From a virus, in IMG/VR virus record IMGVR_UViG_3300023174_003154, positions 1 through 64,000 of that record: a DNA stretch of 64,000 bases. One strand, written 5' to 3'. Position numbers and translations under genes: made by a program. Shown piece by piece: positions 16,915-24,815 of this stretch; within the stretch, counting starts at the first letter, position 1; each line of letters opens with the position of its first letter. The notes under the pieces are model-generated. The model was not told the origin of the DNA and did no database searches. It saw only the letters and a program-made list of their open reading frames with translations.

Positions 16915-17132
16915 AGTCACCCAAAGAAGTTAAAGAATTAGAATCATTGATTAAAGTAAACAAACATCTGGGTATTGCTTTATCTGAGTTAACTCATACT
17001 CATTCCTATATAGGTAGCTTACGTGAACAAAAGAGTTTGATTAAAGTTAAACTAAAATTAGAAGGTATAATAGAACGGACATTGAAGGAAGAGAAATCAT
17101 CCAAAGACAGTTTTTTTAGAAAATTAAAATGA
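16911..17132 (+). CDS. Small hypothetical protein between gp47 and gp46
   Basis: 73-aa ORF with ATGA overlaps at both ends, suggesting translational coupling. Confidence 0.6.
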   Translation: MKSPKEVKELESLIKVNKHLGIALSELTHTHSYIGSLREQKSLIKVKLKLEGIIERTLKEEKSSKDSFFRKLK

Positions 17133-19201
17133 TATTATTAAAGAACATTACACTACGAAACTTTCTATCGATCGGACAAGTCACGCAAGCAGTTGACTTT
17201 AACCGACAAGACTTAACACTTATTCTAGGTGAGAACTTAGACTTAGGTGGTGACGGTGCTCGTAATGGTACAGGTAAGACTAGTCTTATTCAAGGTCTAA
17301 GCTATGCATTGTTTGGTGTGCCCATTAACTCAATTAGAAAAGATAATTTAGTTAATCGTACAAATGGAAAGGGCATGTTAGTCACACTTGAGTTTAGTGT
17401 AAATGGTATTGACTACAAGATTGAGCGTGGTCGTAAGCCAAACCTATTGAGATTTTATGTAAACAGTGATTTACAAAAAGGTACAGACGATGCACAGGGT
17501 GAGAACAAAGAAACACAGATAGCAATTGAAAAAGTTCTGTGTATGTCTAGTAGCATGTTCCGCCATATCGTAGCATTGAATACATATAGCGAACCGTTCT
17601 TAGCACTTAAAGCAAACGAACAACGTGAAATCATTGAACAGTTATTGGGTATCACATTACTATCTGAGAAAGCAGAGACAATTAAGGTACTGTTAAAAGA
17701 TACCAAAGATAGTATTCAAGGTGAAGAATTCAAAGTCAAAGCTATTGAAGAAGCCAATAAGCGAGTAAAAGAACAGATTGAAAGTTTGAAACGCAGACAA
17801 GGTCTTTGGCAAAAGAAACACGAAAGTGACTTAGCATACCTAGTTGCACAGTATGATGAACTAGGCAAGATTGACATTGAAGTTGAATTATTAGCGCACA
17901 AAGAATTAGTCATTTGGAATGAGAAGAAAAAGCAACAAGATGCATACAATTCATTATTGGCTAGACAAACTGCTTGGAAACAAAAGCAAGAAAAAGACAT
18001 ATACGATTTAGAGAAAAACGGTATCAAGATGAGCCAAATTGATATCGTACAAGAAATATTAGCACATCGTGCTTTGGCTGAATATAACAACAAGTTAAAA
18101 GAAATTGCAGACAGAGACAAAGAAGTTGCAAGAATCGATAAGGACATTGAAAAAGAAAACAAGTTAATTGAGAAATTAAATGTTGAAATTTTAAAACTGT
18201 TAGCACATCAATGCTATGCTTGCGGGCAAGACTTCCATGATGAACAACATTCTAAGGTGTTGGCTGACAAAGAAAAGATGTTGGAAGATGCACAGTTTCA
18301 TGTCACTACGTTGTTGAATCAACTTAAAGAATTGAGTGACAAGGACATTGTATTGGGTGATAAACCCAAGACACATTACAAGACAGAAGCAGAAGCGATT
18401 CGTCATGGTAGCGATGCAGAAAATATTCGCACAAAAATACTTGAAAAAGAAAAAGAAGTTGATCCATATGCTGAACAACTAGCAGAATATAAACCAGTTG
18501 AGATTGGTGTTATGCCAGTCACTCATTATGATACAGAAACGCAAGCGATTGAACATCGTAGTAAAGTATCTGGGTTATTACAACAGATTGAAACAAAAGC
18601 AGTTGAGTCTGATCCATATGCTGAACAAGTAGTTGAGATGGAGTCAAATGCGTTACAAGCAATTGACTTTGAAGCAATCAACAAACTAACAAAGACTATG
18701 GAACATCAAAAGTTTCTATTAGATATTCTAACTAGCAAAGATAGCTTTGTTCGTAAGAAAATCATTGACCAAAATTTGAGTTATTTGAATAGTCGGTTGA
18801 CGCATTACTTAGACAAGATTGGTTTACCGCATCAGGTTATCTTTCAGAATGATTTGAACGTTGAGATTACAGAGTTGGGTCGTGAACTTGATTTTGATAA
18901 CTTAAGTCGTGGTGAACGTAACAGATTGATTCTTGGCTTAAGTTTTGCTTTCCGTGATGTTTGGGAGAACTTATATGCACCAATCAATACACTATTCATT
19001 GACGAATTGATTGACAGCGGGCTAGATACAATGGGTGTTGAAAACGCTATTGCTATTCTCAAAGATATGTCACGTAAGAGACAGAAATCAATTTGGCTTG
19101 TAAGTCATAGAGAAGAATTAGCAGGGCGTGTTCCTAGTGTGCTAAAAGTAGTTAAGGAGGGAGGCTTTACTTCTTATTCAAGCGCATCTGATATGGTGTA
19201 A
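17129..19201 (+). CDS. Recombination ATPase subunit, gp46 (Rad50/SbcC-like)
   Basis: Walker A GARNGTGKT, central CYAC zinc hook within coiled coil, signature LSRGE, Walker B LFIDE, H-loop VSH. Confidence 0.93.
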   Translation: MILLKNITLRNFLSIGQVTQAVDFNRQDLTLILGENLDLGGDGARNGTGKTSLIQGLSYALFGVPINSIRKDNLVNRTNGKGMLVTLEFSVNGIDYKIERGRKPNLLRFYVNSDLQKGTDDAQGENKETQIAIEKVLCMSSSMFRHIVALNTYSEPFLALKANEQREIIEQLLGITLLSEKAETIKVLLKDTKDSIQGEEFKVKAIEEANKRVKEQIESLKRRQGLWQKKHESDLAYLVAQYDELGKIDIEVELLAHKELVIWNEKKKQQDAYNSLLARQTAWKQKQEKDIYDLEKNGIKMSQIDIVQEILAHRALAEYNNKLKEIADRDKEVARIDKDIEKENKLIEKLNVEILKLLAHQCYACGQDFHDEQHSKVLADKEKMLEDAQFHVTTLLNQLKELSDKDIVLGDKPKTHYKTEAEAIRHGSDAENIRTKILEKEKEVDPYAEQLAEYKPVEIGVMPVTHYDTETQAIEHRSKVSGLLQQIETKAVESDPYAEQVVEMESNALQAIDFEAINKLTKTMEHQKFLLDILTSKDSFVRKKIIDQNLSYLNSRLTHYLDKIGLPHQVIFQNDLNVEITELGRELDFDNLSRGERNRLILGLSFAFRDVWENLYAPINTLFIDELIDSGLDTMGVENAIAILKDMSRKRQKSIWLVSHREELAGRVPSVLKVVKEGGFTSYSSASDMV

Positions 19202-19260: not shown

Positions 19261-19896
19261 ATGTGGTATGTATACATTTTGTATGACCCTAGAAATAATA
19301 CACCATTTTATATAGGTAAAGGTGTCAAAAGAAGAATGACAGCAACTATCAATATAAATCAAACGGGTAATGGATTAAAACGCAAGTTTCTTAAAGAAAT
19401 TAAAGATATTGGTTTAAAACCAATAGTTACTGTAGTAGCAGAGTATGACTCAGAAAAAGATGCGTTAGAAAAAGAAAAAATACTAATTTCAGAATTTGGT
19501 AGAATTATTAAAGGAGACGGGTGTTTGACAAATTATTCTGAAGGTGGGGACTTAAGTAATGCAGGTTGGATCCCATCGGATGATACTAGAAAATTATGGT
19601 CTAAGCAACGCAAGGGTATTAAACAGAGTGAGAATCATGTTTCCGCTAGGGTCGCAAAAACCAAAGGCCTAACTCGGTCGGATACTCAAAGAAAAAATTA
19701 TATTCTTGCTAGTATTAGGCGTACTAATCCAGAATTAAAAGCAAACATTATACACGAATTAGAAAGTAATTTGATACAGCACGGTACATTAACTACGATA
19801 GCTAAAAAATTCAATTGTAGCATTGACTTGATAAGTAGAATACACAAAGATATTAATTTATACAAAGAGGCATTAAATGAGTGGATCAAAAAGTAA
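19261..19896 (+). CDS. Free-standing homing endonuclease, GIY-YIG-like with NUMOD3-like DNA-binding repeats
   Basis: WYVYILYDP...FYIGKG..R motif pair, ALEKEKILI helix, LTN motif, NUMOD3-like SDDTRKLWSKQRKG / QSENHVSARVAKTKG, C-terminal HTH-like TTIAKKFNCSIDLISRI. Confidence 0.75.
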   Translation: MWYVYILYDPRNNTPFYIGKGVKRRMTATININQTGNGLKRKFLKEIKDIGLKPIVTVVAEYDSEKDALEKEKILISEFGRIIKGDGCLTNYSEGGDLSNAGWIPSDDTRKLWSKQRKGIKQSENHVSARVAKTKGLTRSDTQRKNYILASIRRTNPELKANIIHELESNLIQHGTLTTIAKKFNCSIDLISRIHKDINLYKEALNEWIKK

Positions 19897-20452
19897 GAAT
19901 AAAGGTAACGCATTTGAGCGTGAAGTTGCTAATTTTTTATCTAAAACATACAATGCCTCTTTTGTTCGGGCAGCACATAGCGGTGCATTTATAGGTGGGA
20001 CAAACAATCACCGAAAAGAATATCTAAGTGAGAATCAAGTTAAATCATTCAAAGGTGATATCATACCACCTGATGATTGGAAACATTTCAATGCCGAAGC
20101 GAAAAGTTACGCTGACTTTCCGTTTCATCTGGTACTAACAGGTGAATGCAAACAACTTGATTCGTGGTTAGCACAATTACTTGATGTAGAAGATACTGAC
20201 GATTTAAATATTCTTTTTATGAAGTTTAATCGTAAAGGTCAATATGTCGCTGTACAAGGTAAACTAACATGGAAAGCAGATAATTGTCTTTTATATAGTA
20301 GTCCTACACACGGCGACTGGGTCATCATGGAACATTCTAGCTTTTTTCAAAACAATGCAGAATTAGTAAAAACATATTCAAGCACAACAATCGACACCAC
20401 GTCAACTCTTAATACAAATATAAACGAATTTCATAAACAATTAGTCGGCTGA
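19877..20452 (+). CDS. Hjc-like PD-(D/E)xK nuclease (putative Holliday junction resolvase)
   Basis: SKNKGNAFEREVA...SGA...GDI...EAK is the Hjc-type catalytic arrangement; overlaps the upstream ORF by 20 nt. Confidence 0.75.
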   Translation: MSGSKSKNKGNAFEREVANFLSKTYNASFVRAAHSGAFIGGTNNHRKEYLSENQVKSFKGDIIPPDDWKHFNAEAKSYADFPFHLVLTGECKQLDSWLAQLLDVEDTDDLNILFMKFNRKGQYVAVQGKLTWKADNCLLYSSPTHGDWVIMEHSSFFQNNAELVKTYSSTTIDTTSTLNTNINEFHKQLVG

Positions 20453-20928: not shown

Positions 20929-21117
20929 TTAAAAGAATGGCAATTTCGTATTCTTTGTAGTTTCTAAGTTACTTTCAATAATAGCAGTTATGGCATTTCT
21001 TTCGTCATTGCTCATATTGAGTATATCCTCATAGGATGCTCCTCCCCTCATATACCATGACATTTTAAGTGCTCCTTTTCTTATATCAGAGCACTCCTGT
21101 TCCATACCATCTATCAT
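20929..21117 (-). CDS. gp51-like baseplate hub/tail assembly chaperone; probably C-terminal part of a -1 frameshift product
   Basis: WYMRGGASYEDILNMSNDERNAI resembles gp51 and P2 E' short chaperone domains; the frame stays open upstream to the slippery site at 21159-21165. Confidence 0.65.
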   Translation of the reverse strand: MIDGMEQECSDIRKGALKMSWYMRGGASYEDILNMSNDERNAITAIIESNLETTKNTKLPFF

Positions 21118-21119
21118 TC

Positions 21120-21165
21120 GCTTAATCCCCTCGGAACCAAGGAGAAGAAGCCTTAGTCGAAAAAA
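21120..21165 (-). other. Putative programmed -1 ribosomal frameshift signal (U UUU UUC, 7-nt spacer, hairpin)
   Basis: Minus strand: GAT TTT TTC GAC TAA G GCTTCTTCTCCTTG-GTTC-CGAGGGGATTAAGC; the -1 frame is that of the 62-aa ORF. Confidence 0.65.
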
Positions 21166-21980
21166 TCAGATATATTGATGTTTAGTGATTGTTGATGTGT
21201 GTGACTGCAATGACTACATGTAATATCTAAAGGTTTTAGTTCCGTTGTTTTACGCAATTCAATATTCTTTTCTTTGATAAAGTTATGAGTATTTTTATCA
21301 CATTGTTGTAGGAATTCATTTATAAATTCTTTATCAAAAACTGTTGCATCTGGGGTTTTGATATACTCAATGGTTTCTATCAACAATTCAGTAGTGAGGT
21401 CATTAATGCTTGCTATTAATTGACTTGTTTTTGTATTCTTTAAATCAACATCTTCAATTCTGTCTATATCCAATAGAGTACGTTGAATCTCAAATTGCTT
21501 TTCATTTGCTTTACTAACTTCTTTATACGTCAGAGGTCTAAATTTAATTTTTAACTCACCTATTGTCACTGGAGTGTTATAGTCACCAGGTGTAAAAGTT
21601 CCCAACAATCCTGACAGGTTAACATCAAACTTACTTTCTTCCTTACATTCTGGACAAGTAGAATCAATCTCCATTAATTGACCATTAGTAGCAATTTTAA
21701 TAGCAACTAATATTGGATCTAAATCAATGTTCAGTAATTCCCAGGGTCTTTTGATTGATGGAACACAACTTTTGATGATTTCTGTTACTGCTACCCCATT
21801 GAAAAGTGCATCAGGAGTTCTGCTTGTTATCTCATCAATAGCAGACATTGGGTATATTGGTAATTCTCCGCTCTCGGGGAATTCAATAGCACCTTCACTA
21901 TATCCTACACCCCCGCTTGGTAGTTTTAAATACAATGCTGGGCGGCGAAAGAATTGTCGTAATGGATTATCTTGAGTCAT
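21153..21980 (-). CDS. Baseplate hub subunit/assembly chaperone, gp26-like
   Basis: YLKLPSGG, IYPMSAIDEI, CPEC and CSHC zinc-knuckle pairs, IKFRP and a C-terminal DFF are typical of T4 gp26-family proteins. Confidence 0.75.
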   Translation of the reverse strand: MTQDNPLRQFFRRPALYLKLPSGGVGYSEGAIEFPESGELPIYPMSAIDEITSRTPDALFNGVAVTEIIKSCVPSIKRPWELLNIDLDPILVAIKIATNGQLMEIDSTCPECKEESKFDVNLSGLLGTFTPGDYNTPVTIGELKIKFRPLTYKEVSKANEKQFEIQRTLLDIDRIEDVDLKNTKTSQLIASINDLTTELLIETIEYIKTPDATVFDKEFINEFLQQCDKNTHNFIKEKNIELRKTTELKPLDITCSHCSHTHQQSLNINISDFFD

Positions 21981-22013: not shown

Positions 22014-22045
22014 ACTAAATACAATTAGTACCGAAAGTATTTATA
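22014..22045. promoter_or_regulatory. Face-to-face late promoters: ACTAAATA (+, 22014-22021) and TATAAATA (-, 22038-22045)
   Basis: One late motif per strand in the 75-bp gap between the divergent gp26-like and tape-measure-like genes. Confidence 0.6.
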
Positions 22046-22055
22046 ACTCAAAAAT

Positions 22056-24815
22056 ATGGCTACAAATAATCCAATGACACAAGAGCAAATGGAACAGTTT
22101 GCTCAATCGCTAGCAAGATTAGCGTCCCAGGTTGACACTACCCGTCAAGGATTCGGTCCCTTTGCCGATGCACAGCGTGAGGCAGGTGATGAGTTAAAGA
22201 ACGGAATGAAGCAGGCTGCACAGCAGTTAGGTAATTCAGTTGTTAGTTTAACTAAAGCAATGGATCCACTTAGTGGGCAACAGGGTCTAGGAAAGTTTTC
22301 AGGAGCAGTTTCAGGCGCTGCCGACGCTGCAGGTACAGCGGCTCAAACAATGCTTGCGTCATTTGGGCCTTTGGGATTAGTAGTTGGTACAGTCATAAAA
22401 TTATTTGGCCAGTTAGCAGGAGCTAGCTTAAAGCAAAATGATGTAATGATGAAAGCATACAGGGATCTGGCTGAAACAGGTTCTGTTAGTGGTAGTTTAG
22501 AAAAACTTAATACTGATTTACATAGAGTAGGATTAACATCTGGGGAAGCTGAAAAGTTTGGTCAGATGATTGGAAAAGTAACACCAGACCTTGCGGCTTT
22601 TGGTGGTAGTGTTACTGCTGGTAAAGATAAGTTTATCAAAGTATTTGAGGGAATGATTGGTGTCGGTAGCAAAACCGAAATGCAATTAAATCGTTTAGGG
22701 TATAGTACTGACACGATGCGTGAAGCAACTGCCGATTATATTGCAAGACAGTCAAGGTTAGGATTAACACAAGGTAAAACTACTGAACAGTTACGCGGTG
22801 AATCTGTAAACTACATGAAAACTCTGCGTGAGTTACAAGAAGTTACAGGTATGAGTCGTGACGAAGCACAAAAGATACTAGACCAACAGCAGAAAGACGC
22901 ACGTTGGGCAATGACATTACGTGAGATTGAAGCTACTCAAGGACACGAAGCTGCCGAAAGAGCAAGAATGGGTATGGCTGCGTTCTCTCAAACTTTCGGT
23001 TCAGAAGCTGCCGCTGATTTGATGGAACAAGTTGCTAATAAGGGTGCAATTGTTGGTGAAGCTAGCGCACGTAGCGAAAGAGCAACATTAGGTCAGGGGT
23101 ATAAACAACTGCAAGCTGTTATTGATGGTCAAATTACATCAGGTCAAATGGTTGTTGGTGTAAGTCAAGCAGTATCGAGAAATATGGATGCGCTTGGCCC
23201 AGCTTATAAAATTTCAGGTGATGGCCTGAAAGATATGACAGGTTCTATGGGATTGGTTACCGGAGCATATGCTAATGCTAACAAGAAGTACGAAGATGTA
23301 AACAAAACATTAGGAGACAAGACAAAAATAGCCGGTGATAGACTGCAAGAAAACGTTGAAATTGAACAAAAACAAAGAGTTATGCGTATAGCGGCTGATA
23401 AAGCTATATGGGAAATAGGTAACGTAACTGTTGGCATGTTCCAAAAGTTAAATGATATCATGTTTAAGTTTGCTAAAACTCTAGCAAAATTAGTTGATTG
23501 GGTAATGGATAAAGTCTTTAATAAGAAAACTAATTATGCTGACATGTTCAAAGACCAAGATGATTTTAAACAGGATCAAACAGCCGCACTAAAAGATAAG
23601 GCTGCGACCGAGGAAGAAATTGCTAGGGTTAAAAAACAGTATGCAGAACTTGAAGGTGATGCTACAGGTAAAATATTTGAATCTAAATTGGCAGCACTTA
23701 AGAAAACTGTAGCTGAAACTAATAATTACCAAGACGTTGAAGGTAATGTACAAGACTCTGCAATGATGGAGAAAAATTTAATTGCTAGACAAGAAGTTGC
23801 ACGATTAGAAGAATTAAAGAAACAAGCAGTCAAACAAGATGGCACAATTGACTTACAAAAATTAAATGCTTTAAAACAACAAAAATTACAAGCATTACAA
23901 GAACAGATTGCAAAAGAAGATTTAAGACTACAAGAAGCTGAGAAAAAATTAAAGAATTTTCAAGCTGAAGGTGGTGCTGGTAATGCTACATTAGAGGAAG
24001 CAAGACAACGAACTTCAAGTGCGTCAAAAGGAACAGCCTTTACTACTGATGAAAAAGGTAATCAAGTATCACAACAGAAATTTGAACAACGTTCAGGGGC
24101 ACAAGCTAACTTAGCCGCCCGAGCAGCCTCAGTGGATTCTTCTGAAATTTTAAACAAACTTAATTTTAAAAATAAAGGAGAAAATACAGGAGGCGGAGAA
24201 GCAGATCCTAAGTTACTTGCATTAGCTGAAATGGTACAAAAAGAATTTCCAGGTGCAACATTTACTGCATTGAACGATGCATTCCATAAAAATAATAGAC
24301 CAAATAGTAAGCACACGGTAGGAAGAGCATTAGATTTCGTTCCCGGCAAACCACCGAAGAGTGTTGATGAAGCGGCACTAATGAAAGAAAAGTTAAAAGA
24401 TTTAGGTGCTAATGTAGTTAGAGATGAGTTCTTTGCTGACAAAGGTGATAGTACTACTGGTGGACATTTTCACTTAGAAGTTGCTAGAGAAGGTGGGCTG
24501 TTTACTGGTCCAACATCAGGTTATCCAGTTGAATTGCATGGTAAAAATGAAAGTGTTTGGCCTGAACCAAAATTACAAGGTCTACTAAAAGAGGTAGAGA
24601 AGTCAAGTATTGAAAAATACAAACAAGAACTGATGGATCAAATGGGTTTATCAGATTATAACAAATCTAACCAAACTACAAGTTCATCTAGTAGTGATCC
24701 TAAGCAAATGGAAGATTTGTTCAATCGGATGATTACTAAATTTGATACATTAATAGCATTACAAGACAAGTCTAATAACATATCTGATGAATTATTAACC
24801 TATACACGGGCTTAA
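22056..24815 (+). CDS. Tape-measure-like protein (gp29 analogue) with C-terminal M15-type Zn peptidase domain
   Basis: Long Ala/Gln-rich helical region; SKHTVGRALD...HFH is an M15 (LAS) zinc motif; AREGGLFTGP..GYPVELHG..E.VWP resembles tape-measure C-terminal motifs. Confidence 0.65.
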   Translation: MATNNPMTQEQMEQFAQSLARLASQVDTTRQGFGPFADAQREAGDELKNGMKQAAQQLGNSVVSLTKAMDPLSGQQGLGKFSGAVSGAADAAGTAAQTMLASFGPLGLVVGTVIKLFGQLAGASLKQNDVMMKAYRDLAETGSVSGSLEKLNTDLHRVGLTSGEAEKFGQMIGKVTPDLAAFGGSVTAGKDKFIKVFEGMIGVGSKTEMQLNRLGYSTDTMREATADYIARQSRLGLTQGKTTEQLRGESVNYMKTLRELQEVTGMSRDEAQKILDQQQKDARWAMTLREIEATQGHEAAERARMGMAAFSQTFGSEAAADLMEQVANKGAIVGEASARSERATLGQGYKQLQAVIDGQITSGQMVVGVSQAVSRNMDALGPAYKISGDGLKDMTGSMGLVTGAYANANKKYEDVNKTLGDKTKIAGDRLQENVEIEQKQRVMRIAADKAIWEIGNVTVGMFQKLNDIMFKFAKTLAKLVDWVMDKVFNKKTNYADMFKDQDDFKQDQTAALKDKAATEEEIARVKKQYAELEGDATGKIFESKLAALKKTVAETNNYQDVEGNVQDSAMMEKNLIARQEVARLEELKKQAVKQDGTIDLQKLNALKQQKLQALQEQIAKEDLRLQEAEKKLKNFQAEGGAGNATLEEARQRTSSASKGTAFTTDEKGNQVSQQKFEQRSGAQANLAARAASVDSSEILNKLNFKNKGENTGGGEADPKLLALAEMVQKEFPGATFTALNDAFHKNNRPNSKHTVGRALDFVPGKPPKSVDEAALMKEKLKDLGANVVRDEFFADKGDSTTGGHFHLEVAREGGLFTGPTSGYPVELHGKNESVWPEPKLQGLLKEVEKSSIEKYKQELMDQMGLSDYNKSNQTTSSSSSDPKQMEDLFNRMITKFDTLIALQDKSNNISDELLTYTRA

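Follow-up and report, generated by a model that had tools for sequence, protein, structure and literature searches.

A probable programmed -1 frameshift in the gp26/gp51-family hub gene of an uncultured giant phage

Why does a gene of the T4 gp26/gp51 family end in a run of six uridines, with an open -1 reading frame starting at that very run? The question is raised by a locus of an uncultured giant phage known from a 76-kb record; because these 76 kb are estimated to make up only ~21% of the genome, the complete genome must be giant. The analysis was based on a 64,000-nt stretch drawn from this record (hereafter, the window). Frameshifting of the G-T type is described as conserved among long-tailed phages 'except T4' (review, Atkins 2016, PMC5009743). 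In T4, gp26 and gp51 are listed as hub assembly chaperones, and gp51, although assembly requires it, is not found in the particle (Leiman et al. 2010, PMC3004832, Table 2). For fifty years the two proteins have been 'hub assembly' factors of obscure mechanism.

The record was matched in public runs from freshwater and lake metagenomes. Its closest cultured relatives are the Rak2-like jumbo phages PBECO4/121Q, XaC1, Atu_ph07, and Phosso (~33% identity), and a blastn comparison of the region with GenBank phages returned no match.

The frameshift site and its predicted products

The zero-frame gene (minus strand, 21153..21980) encodes a 275-aa protein that matches PF12322 ('T4_baseplate') over residues 62-274 (58.5 bits, cutoff 24.5, E 1e-15) and phrog_150 ('baseplate hub', E 3e-20); the 76-kb record contains no other PF12322 gene. 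In the alignment of homologues, two CxxC pairs (C109 and C112, C255 and C258) and the FF pair near the protein end (F273, F274) are invariant. The gene ends with ...TCT GAT TTT TTC GAC TAA, which contains the slippery heptamer U UUU UUC (X XXY YYZ; 21159..21165) in zero-frame phase, three codons before the stop. A 7-nt spacer, GACUAAG (21152..21158), holds most of the zero-frame UAA (21155-21153) and is followed by a putative stimulatory stem-loop, GCUU-(CU)-UCUCCUUG-GUUC-CGAGGGGA-(UU)-AAGC (21120..21151).

In the -1 frame, a TGA (21168-21166) lies directly before the heptamer, from which the frame reads FFRLRLLLLGSEGIKR-MIDG... and stays free of stops to 20932. This -1 window (20929..21165; 78 codons plus stop) would encode the C-terminal extension of a 350-aa form, composed of 274 zero-frame codons plus 76 and predicted to read ...SDFF-RLRLLLLGSEGIKRMIDG...PFF. 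Its 3' part contains a 62-aa ORF (20929..21117) without a match in Pfam, whose ATG at 21117 is confined to close kin. The first-pass annotation had described the heptamer within the gene end GAU UUU UUC GAC UAA, a stem-loop 7 nt beyond it, a -1 frame opening at the heptamer and running into the 62-aa ORF, and products of 275 and about 350 aa. Each of these elements was recovered: the heptamer is read exactly off the minus strand, the stem-loop has the right coordinates and folds at -16.6 kcal/mol, the -1 frame is stop-free over 78 codons, and the two products compute to 275 and 350 aa.

Conservation of the heptamer and the -1 frame

Homologous loci were gathered into a main set of 89, comprising the window, 84 IMG/VR contigs at 47-99% identity, and four GenBank phages (~33% identity), with 78 distinct junction contexts. 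TTTTTTC was present in phase in all 89, with an open -1 frame of 72-79 codons in every untruncated locus. The in-phase run and an open -1 frame were likewise found in 74 of 74 further frameshift-type loci, a second set retrieved together with in-frame homologues, and in 82 of 82 cyanophage/KVP40-type IMG/VR loci; all of the counted loci are phylogenetically related, so the counts do not represent independent events. GenBank phages that carry the site are PBECO4, Atu_ph07, XaC1, Phosso, S-PM2, and KVP40. Two observations that would have spoken against a frameshift were searched for among the homologues: there were no -1-frame stops between the heptamer and the downstream ORF, and no frameshift-type homologue had synonymous codons in place of the U-run. 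Phe and Asp codon usage in the rest of these genes predicts 0.16 for the codon triplet NNT TTT TTC, which was observed in 78 of 78 contexts, and their other FF pairs use other codon pairs. The heptamer signal together with the open -1 frame is far beyond chance.

The position of the zero-frame stop is also fixed. It lies three codons past the first TTT of the heptamer in 88 of the 89 jumbo-type loci (the exception, XaC1, has it at 13) and in all 82 cyanophage-type loci, and consequently sits in the spacer just before the hairpin; such constancy could make the stop a component of the signal in its own right.

Some sequencing chemistries tend to make errors in homopolymers, and a chance overlap or an assembly error in the T-run, devoid of biological meaning, was therefore weighed as an explanation. 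Against it, the identical architecture recurs in well over 200 loci, in many samples and six cultured phages, and independent metagenome contigs agree in keeping T6 without indels. This conservation effectively refutes an artifact, the likelihood of which we regard as virtually nil. A contig from another lake metagenome study (run X6) that covers 21083-21233 carries eight substitutions relative to the window over its 151 nt, 21188 A>C and 21199 G>T among them; with the T-run kept and no indel, it represents a co-occurring variant strain. The PF12322 gene of Salmonella phage ViI, of the Ackermannviridae (NC_015296: 46764-47522), the only one detected there, lacks a slippery heptamer and ends ...TEIFI*.

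The two reading frames could also be independent genes, with the small ORF translated from its own start at ATG 21117, perhaps by translational coupling if a terminating ribosome melted the hairpin and exposed GAGGGG. This proposal, made in the first-pass annotation as the alternative to frameshifting, finds support in the 3' arm of the window hairpin, where GAGGGG precedes ATG 21117 by 9 nt, and in the separate small CDSs annotated in GenBank. Both GAGGGG and ATG 21117 are, however, confined to the closest kin, which shows that independent initiation is not a conserved mode of expression. Elsewhere the first ATG of the -1 frame falls at codon 3-4, 8-17, 20, 32-38, or 50 depending on the locus, with none conserved; the frequent 'Met' at codon 20 alternates among M, Y, L, and F, and the N-termini chosen by gene callers are ragged. 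The -1 peptide, in contrast, is conserved from its first residue (FFR[LIMV]xLL..PE.[IV].KL...SWYMRGG.SYEDILNMS..ER...NLETTKK..PFF), that is, upstream of all those ATGs, and independent genes leave the nucleotide-level invariance of TTTTTTC unexplained. Independent genes are thus very unlikely as an account of the locus, even though some separate 62-aa product may be possible in this phage, with GAGGGG as a plausible Shine-Dalgarno sequence.

A conserved hairpin downstream of the slippery site

The window hairpin is far more stable than same-length segments of the locus (-16.6 vs. -4.3 +/- 2.7 kcal/mol) and lies below every control (rank 0.00). Among the 78 distinct contexts, the 46-nt segment that begins 4 nt past the heptamer has a mean folding energy of -13.8 kcal/mol (z about -3), and in 81% of loci the hairpin region is among the lowest 5% of its own control segments. 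The spacer between the heptamer and the first paired base measures 4-7 nt in 76 of 78 contexts and is most often 6 nt long. RNAalifold returned no consensus structure on a fixed 77-sequence alignment, owing to register shifts of the inner stem, and was replaced by folding each sequence separately and by a defined structure consisting of an outer stem GCUUCU/AGAAGC and a variable inner stem. In this structure, 77.9% of cells were paired, compared to 40-52% when the partners were slid, and double-sided changes numbered 68 vs. 34 +/- 7 in shuffles (0 of 500 shuffles reached the observed value). Within the stem, Leu is almost always encoded as CTT CTN, a constraint at the nucleotide level beyond that on the protein. 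The cyanophage/KVP40-type loci have a hairpin of different sequence at the same place (z -3.4). The position of the hairpin is therefore kept among homologues and covariation is present, in line with what the first-pass annotation had proposed to check.

The same features bear on transcriptional slippage, in which RNA polymerase would add one U in the U6 run and ribosomes would not slip at all. The homopolymer at the site is compatible with such a process, and the protein would be identical if translated from an mRNA carrying an additional U. Productive polymerase slippage usually needs 9 or more A/T, for which a run of six is short. The site bears hallmarks of ribosomal -1 frameshifting: its X XXY YYZ is completed by an invariant C, the codon phase is fixed, and a hairpin that covaries follows at 4-7 nt. 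DNA contigs showed no length heterogeneity, an observation that applies to DNA and is silent on RNA. On balance, polymerase slippage is highly improbable. Given a conserved in-phase U-run, an open -1 frame, and a conserved, covarying hairpin, the programmed -1 frameshift first suggested for this locus holds up, and it is very probably real, with products of 275 and 350 aa.

Natural in-frame long forms

An extension profile built from 71 of the -1 peptides was searched against 1.84 billion representatives and matched 408, the majority of them ORFs of 40-98 aa whose starts are ragged. Among the best 150 of these 408 matches, about 20 were proteins of 319-351 aa that carry the extension at their C-terminal end, aligned from profile position 2. 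All 20 are PF12322 proteins, with a junction of the form ...D.D....FR.(K/R)LI..EEI, and no fused forms turned up when lengths of 483-2000 aa were searched. That these natural fusions run through the junction from profile position 2 is a further point against a small gene with its own start. The fusions show that the architecture is functional, and no more than that.

The six in-frame loci from IMG/VR have no slippery run, and their junction codons include CAA TTT AGA, TAT TTT CGG, ACT TTC CGA, CGT TTT CGT, and ATA TTC CGG. In all six, a second, short PF12322 paralogue directly adjoins the long form. The two forms share 42% identity in locus L091 (long form 350 aa, short form 283 aa) and 24-32% in the other five. 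Copy number followed the mode of expression: 72 frameshift loci had one PF12322 copy and two had two copies, whereas all six in-frame loci had two and none had one (Fisher p 9e-8, with kinship among loci ignored). The two exceptional frameshift loci, L115 (4040-5759) and L128 (3911-5768), contain tandem PF12322 paralogues of which the downstream copy retains TTTTTTC and the -1 extension, and they are plausible intermediates linking the single frameshifted gene with the in-frame gene pair. These loci show that the recoding signal is evolutionarily interchangeable with a two-gene solution, and the in-frame two-paralogue arrangement is that of T4, gp26 plus gp51.

AF2 modeling of the 350-aa long form that L091 carries naturally (45% identity with the window protein) reached pLDDT 93.9 and pTM 0.90. 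In this model the junction (F274|R275) lies within a helix (270-279), and three more helices, likewise predicted with confidence, make up the extension. A BFVD fold search with a long form 45% identical to the window protein retrieved gp26/gp51-family hub proteins (E down to 1.8e-21).

Relationship to T4 gp26 and gp51, cyanophages, and KVP40

T4 gp26 (208 aa) and gp51 (249 aa) are both full-length PF12322 proteins, and in gp51 the domain covers residues 1-201 and is followed by a 48-residue C-tail. The 62-aa ORF had been called gp51-like; it does correspond to the gp51 C-tail, but T4 gp51 itself is a full-length paralogue of gp26 (PF12322 over 1-201) and not a small partner. Like the window, T4 gp26 and gp51 combine PF12322 with phrog_150 and a short form that ends FF-x(1-3)-stop: gene 26 terminates in EFFELL*, with no T-run, and gene 25 comes next. 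Gene 51 is divergent, and its product reads ...VF at 199-200, so that, as in the predicted long form of the window, an extra helical C-terminal tail comes directly after the same F. The systems differ in how the two forms arise, since T4 makes them from separate, divergently transcribed paralogous genes without a slippery run, whereas the window has one gene and a frameshift.

S-PM2 and KVP40 have a single gp26 ending in ..SFFA* and ..DFFV*, respectively, with TTTTTTC three codons before the stop. Their -1 ORF is the GenBank 'gp51' or 'baseplate hub assembly catalyst' (phrog_634), and the KVP40 record notes the small ORF as similar to the last 40 residues of T4 gp51. These small phrog_634 ORFs of KVP40 and cyanophages are placed just as the window extension is, in the -1 frame behind an identical TTTTTTC. 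They differ in being annotated as free-standing, with no ribosomal slippage given in the records inspected, and in length (59-68 codons, compared to 78 in the window).

Profile comparisons connect the extensions with the gp51 tail stepwise. The profile of cyanophage -1 peptides matched residues 200-244 of T4 gp51 (E 6e-8), and the jumbo-phage extension aligned to the cyanophage extension profile in the same register (P 0.0014). Directly compared to gp51 222-246, the jumbo-phage extension gave a weak match (hhalign E 0.037); of the 71 extension peptides, none matched phrog_634 and four matched phrog_150 weakly. By its PF12322 body and related C-tail, the long frameshift product is thus the counterpart of gp51, and the short product is that of gp26.

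Gene neighborhood

The window and its Rak2-like relatives share a gene order of portal, a virion protein of 700-930 aa, and then a divergent hub gene with the small ORF. Downstream in the window are a T4-type portal, a prohead protease, and a major capsid protein. The 919-aa neighbor (22056..24815, plus strand) is divergent from the hub gene and is the positional counterpart of a PBECO4 'virion structural protein'. It is Cys-free, rich in Ala, Gly, Lys, and Gln, and like gp29 in composition, and its look-alikes by ESM-Atlas protein-language-model features are tape measure clusters (scores 0.94 and 0.92). The protein has no Pfam, PHROG, or PDB match, its BLASTP comparison with T4 gp29 was non-significant (E 0.11), and a search for phrog_1283 across the record found no match. 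A tape-measure-like gene had been reported as adjoining and divergent; adjacency and divergence were confirmed, and on position, composition, and look-alikes the neighbor is only a candidate tape-measure protein.

A match to the T4 late-promoter consensus, TATAAATA (22038..22045, minus strand), is situated 57 nt upstream of the hub ATG. The motif occurs in only two copies in the 64 kb (9.4 +/- 3.2 expected), and the copy 5' of the hub gene is a possible late promoter. Elsewhere in the window, an SbcC/gp46-like gene (17129-19201) is followed by a GIY-YIG homing-endonuclease-like ORF (19261-19896, plus strand; phrog_314, 4e-10), which in turn overlaps a PDDEXK/RusA-like resolvase gene (19877-20452) by 20 nt.

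Comparison with lambda-type tail chaperones

In lambda, frameshifting yields gpG and gpGT, and a -1 frameshift is reportedly conserved in the tail assembly chaperone genes of long-tailed phages (Levin 1993; Xu, Hendrix, Duda 2004; reviewed in Atkins 2016). The window resembles this system in that ribosomes slipping by -1 shortly before an assembly-chaperone gene ends would yield a short and a C-terminally extended product. The slip site of P2 E/E' is a T6G run, and P2 and the window thus share a U-rich site. In S-PM2 and KVP40, the order of tail-tube paralogue, gene, -1 ORF, and large protein matches V-G-T-H of lambda, and the large protein that follows the -1 ORF in S-PM2 is tape-measure-like (phrog_9570, 5e-21). 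Unlike lambda, the window has its tape-measure candidate divergent and upstream, with no tube gene adjacent. Its body is also larger (275 aa vs. about 90-140 aa in G/GT-type chaperones) and carries a four-Cys zinc-ribbon-like site.

Membership in the Phage_TAC/P2 gpE families was not detected: Pfam scans of the window protein and 43 relatives, with E up to 10, gave PF12322 and zinc ribbons only. A PDB sequence search returned nothing specific, Foldseek against solved structures in the PDB reached a best E of 0.34, and a wide fold search (VIA) found only helical-hairpin matches of a generic kind (residues 149-205, Z up to 8.4). Of the earlier proposal of a lambda G/GT-type tail chaperone, the frameshift logic and the gene order of S-PM2 and KVP40 are in agreement, and a sequence or fold link to known chaperones was not found; the likeness to lambda G/GT is accordingly a functional analogy only.

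Proposed mechanism and implications

In the mechanism that we propose, most ribosomes would read ...D-F-F-D-stop and release the 275-aa short form. On U UUU UUC, with the mRNA entrance meeting the hairpin 7 nt further on, both tRNA-Phe would move back by one base in a fraction of ribosomes, which would then decode CGA (Arg) and add 76 residues to give the 350-aa form ...SDFF-RLRLL...PFF. The two forms would work together as chaperones of hub/tail-tube assembly, like the short gp26 and the long gp51 of T4, a function that we infer for the window protein from T4 genetics, and the frameshift would set the short/long ratio by the logic of lambda gpG/gpGT. Conjecturally, the shared body might hold the tape-measure/hub complex and the extension might recruit a further partner. 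Taken as a whole, a ribosomal slip at U UUU UUC aided by the hairpin and producing a short/long pair of hub/tail assembly chaperones is a highly likely explanation of the locus.

A broader evolutionary proposal is that the gp26/gp51 family is the T4-superfamily counterpart of G/GT, with the frameshift present in most of the group (Rak2-like phages, cyanophages, and KVP40), and that T4 is derived, duplication having replaced the frameshift; we consider the case for it to be evenly balanced. If true, gp26 and gp51 would gain a concrete role in chaperoning the tape measure and hub and in starting the tube at a set ratio, and two essential, mechanistically obscure T4 proteins would have a testable model. 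T4 has been quoted as the exception (PMC5009743), and yet our results point to an equivalent recoding signal in its superfamily, carried by a different protein family, with T4 genes 26 and 51 as the duplicated, frameshift-free version. The same need for a fixed short/long ratio would have been met by either recoding or gene duplication, with intermediates still present.

The inspected GenBank records give two separate CDSs at the locus, and slippage in gp26/gp51 genes was not mentioned in the literature that we searched, which covered few of the subscription journals. The frameshift reading would correct the annotation of many genomes that list a free-standing 'gp51' or a hypothetical small ORF. 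In Acinetobacter phage Octan (GenBank MT409116), a gp51 homologue is labeled 'tape measure protein assembly chaperone', the only database label we saw that gives the family a chaperone role of the lambda kind.
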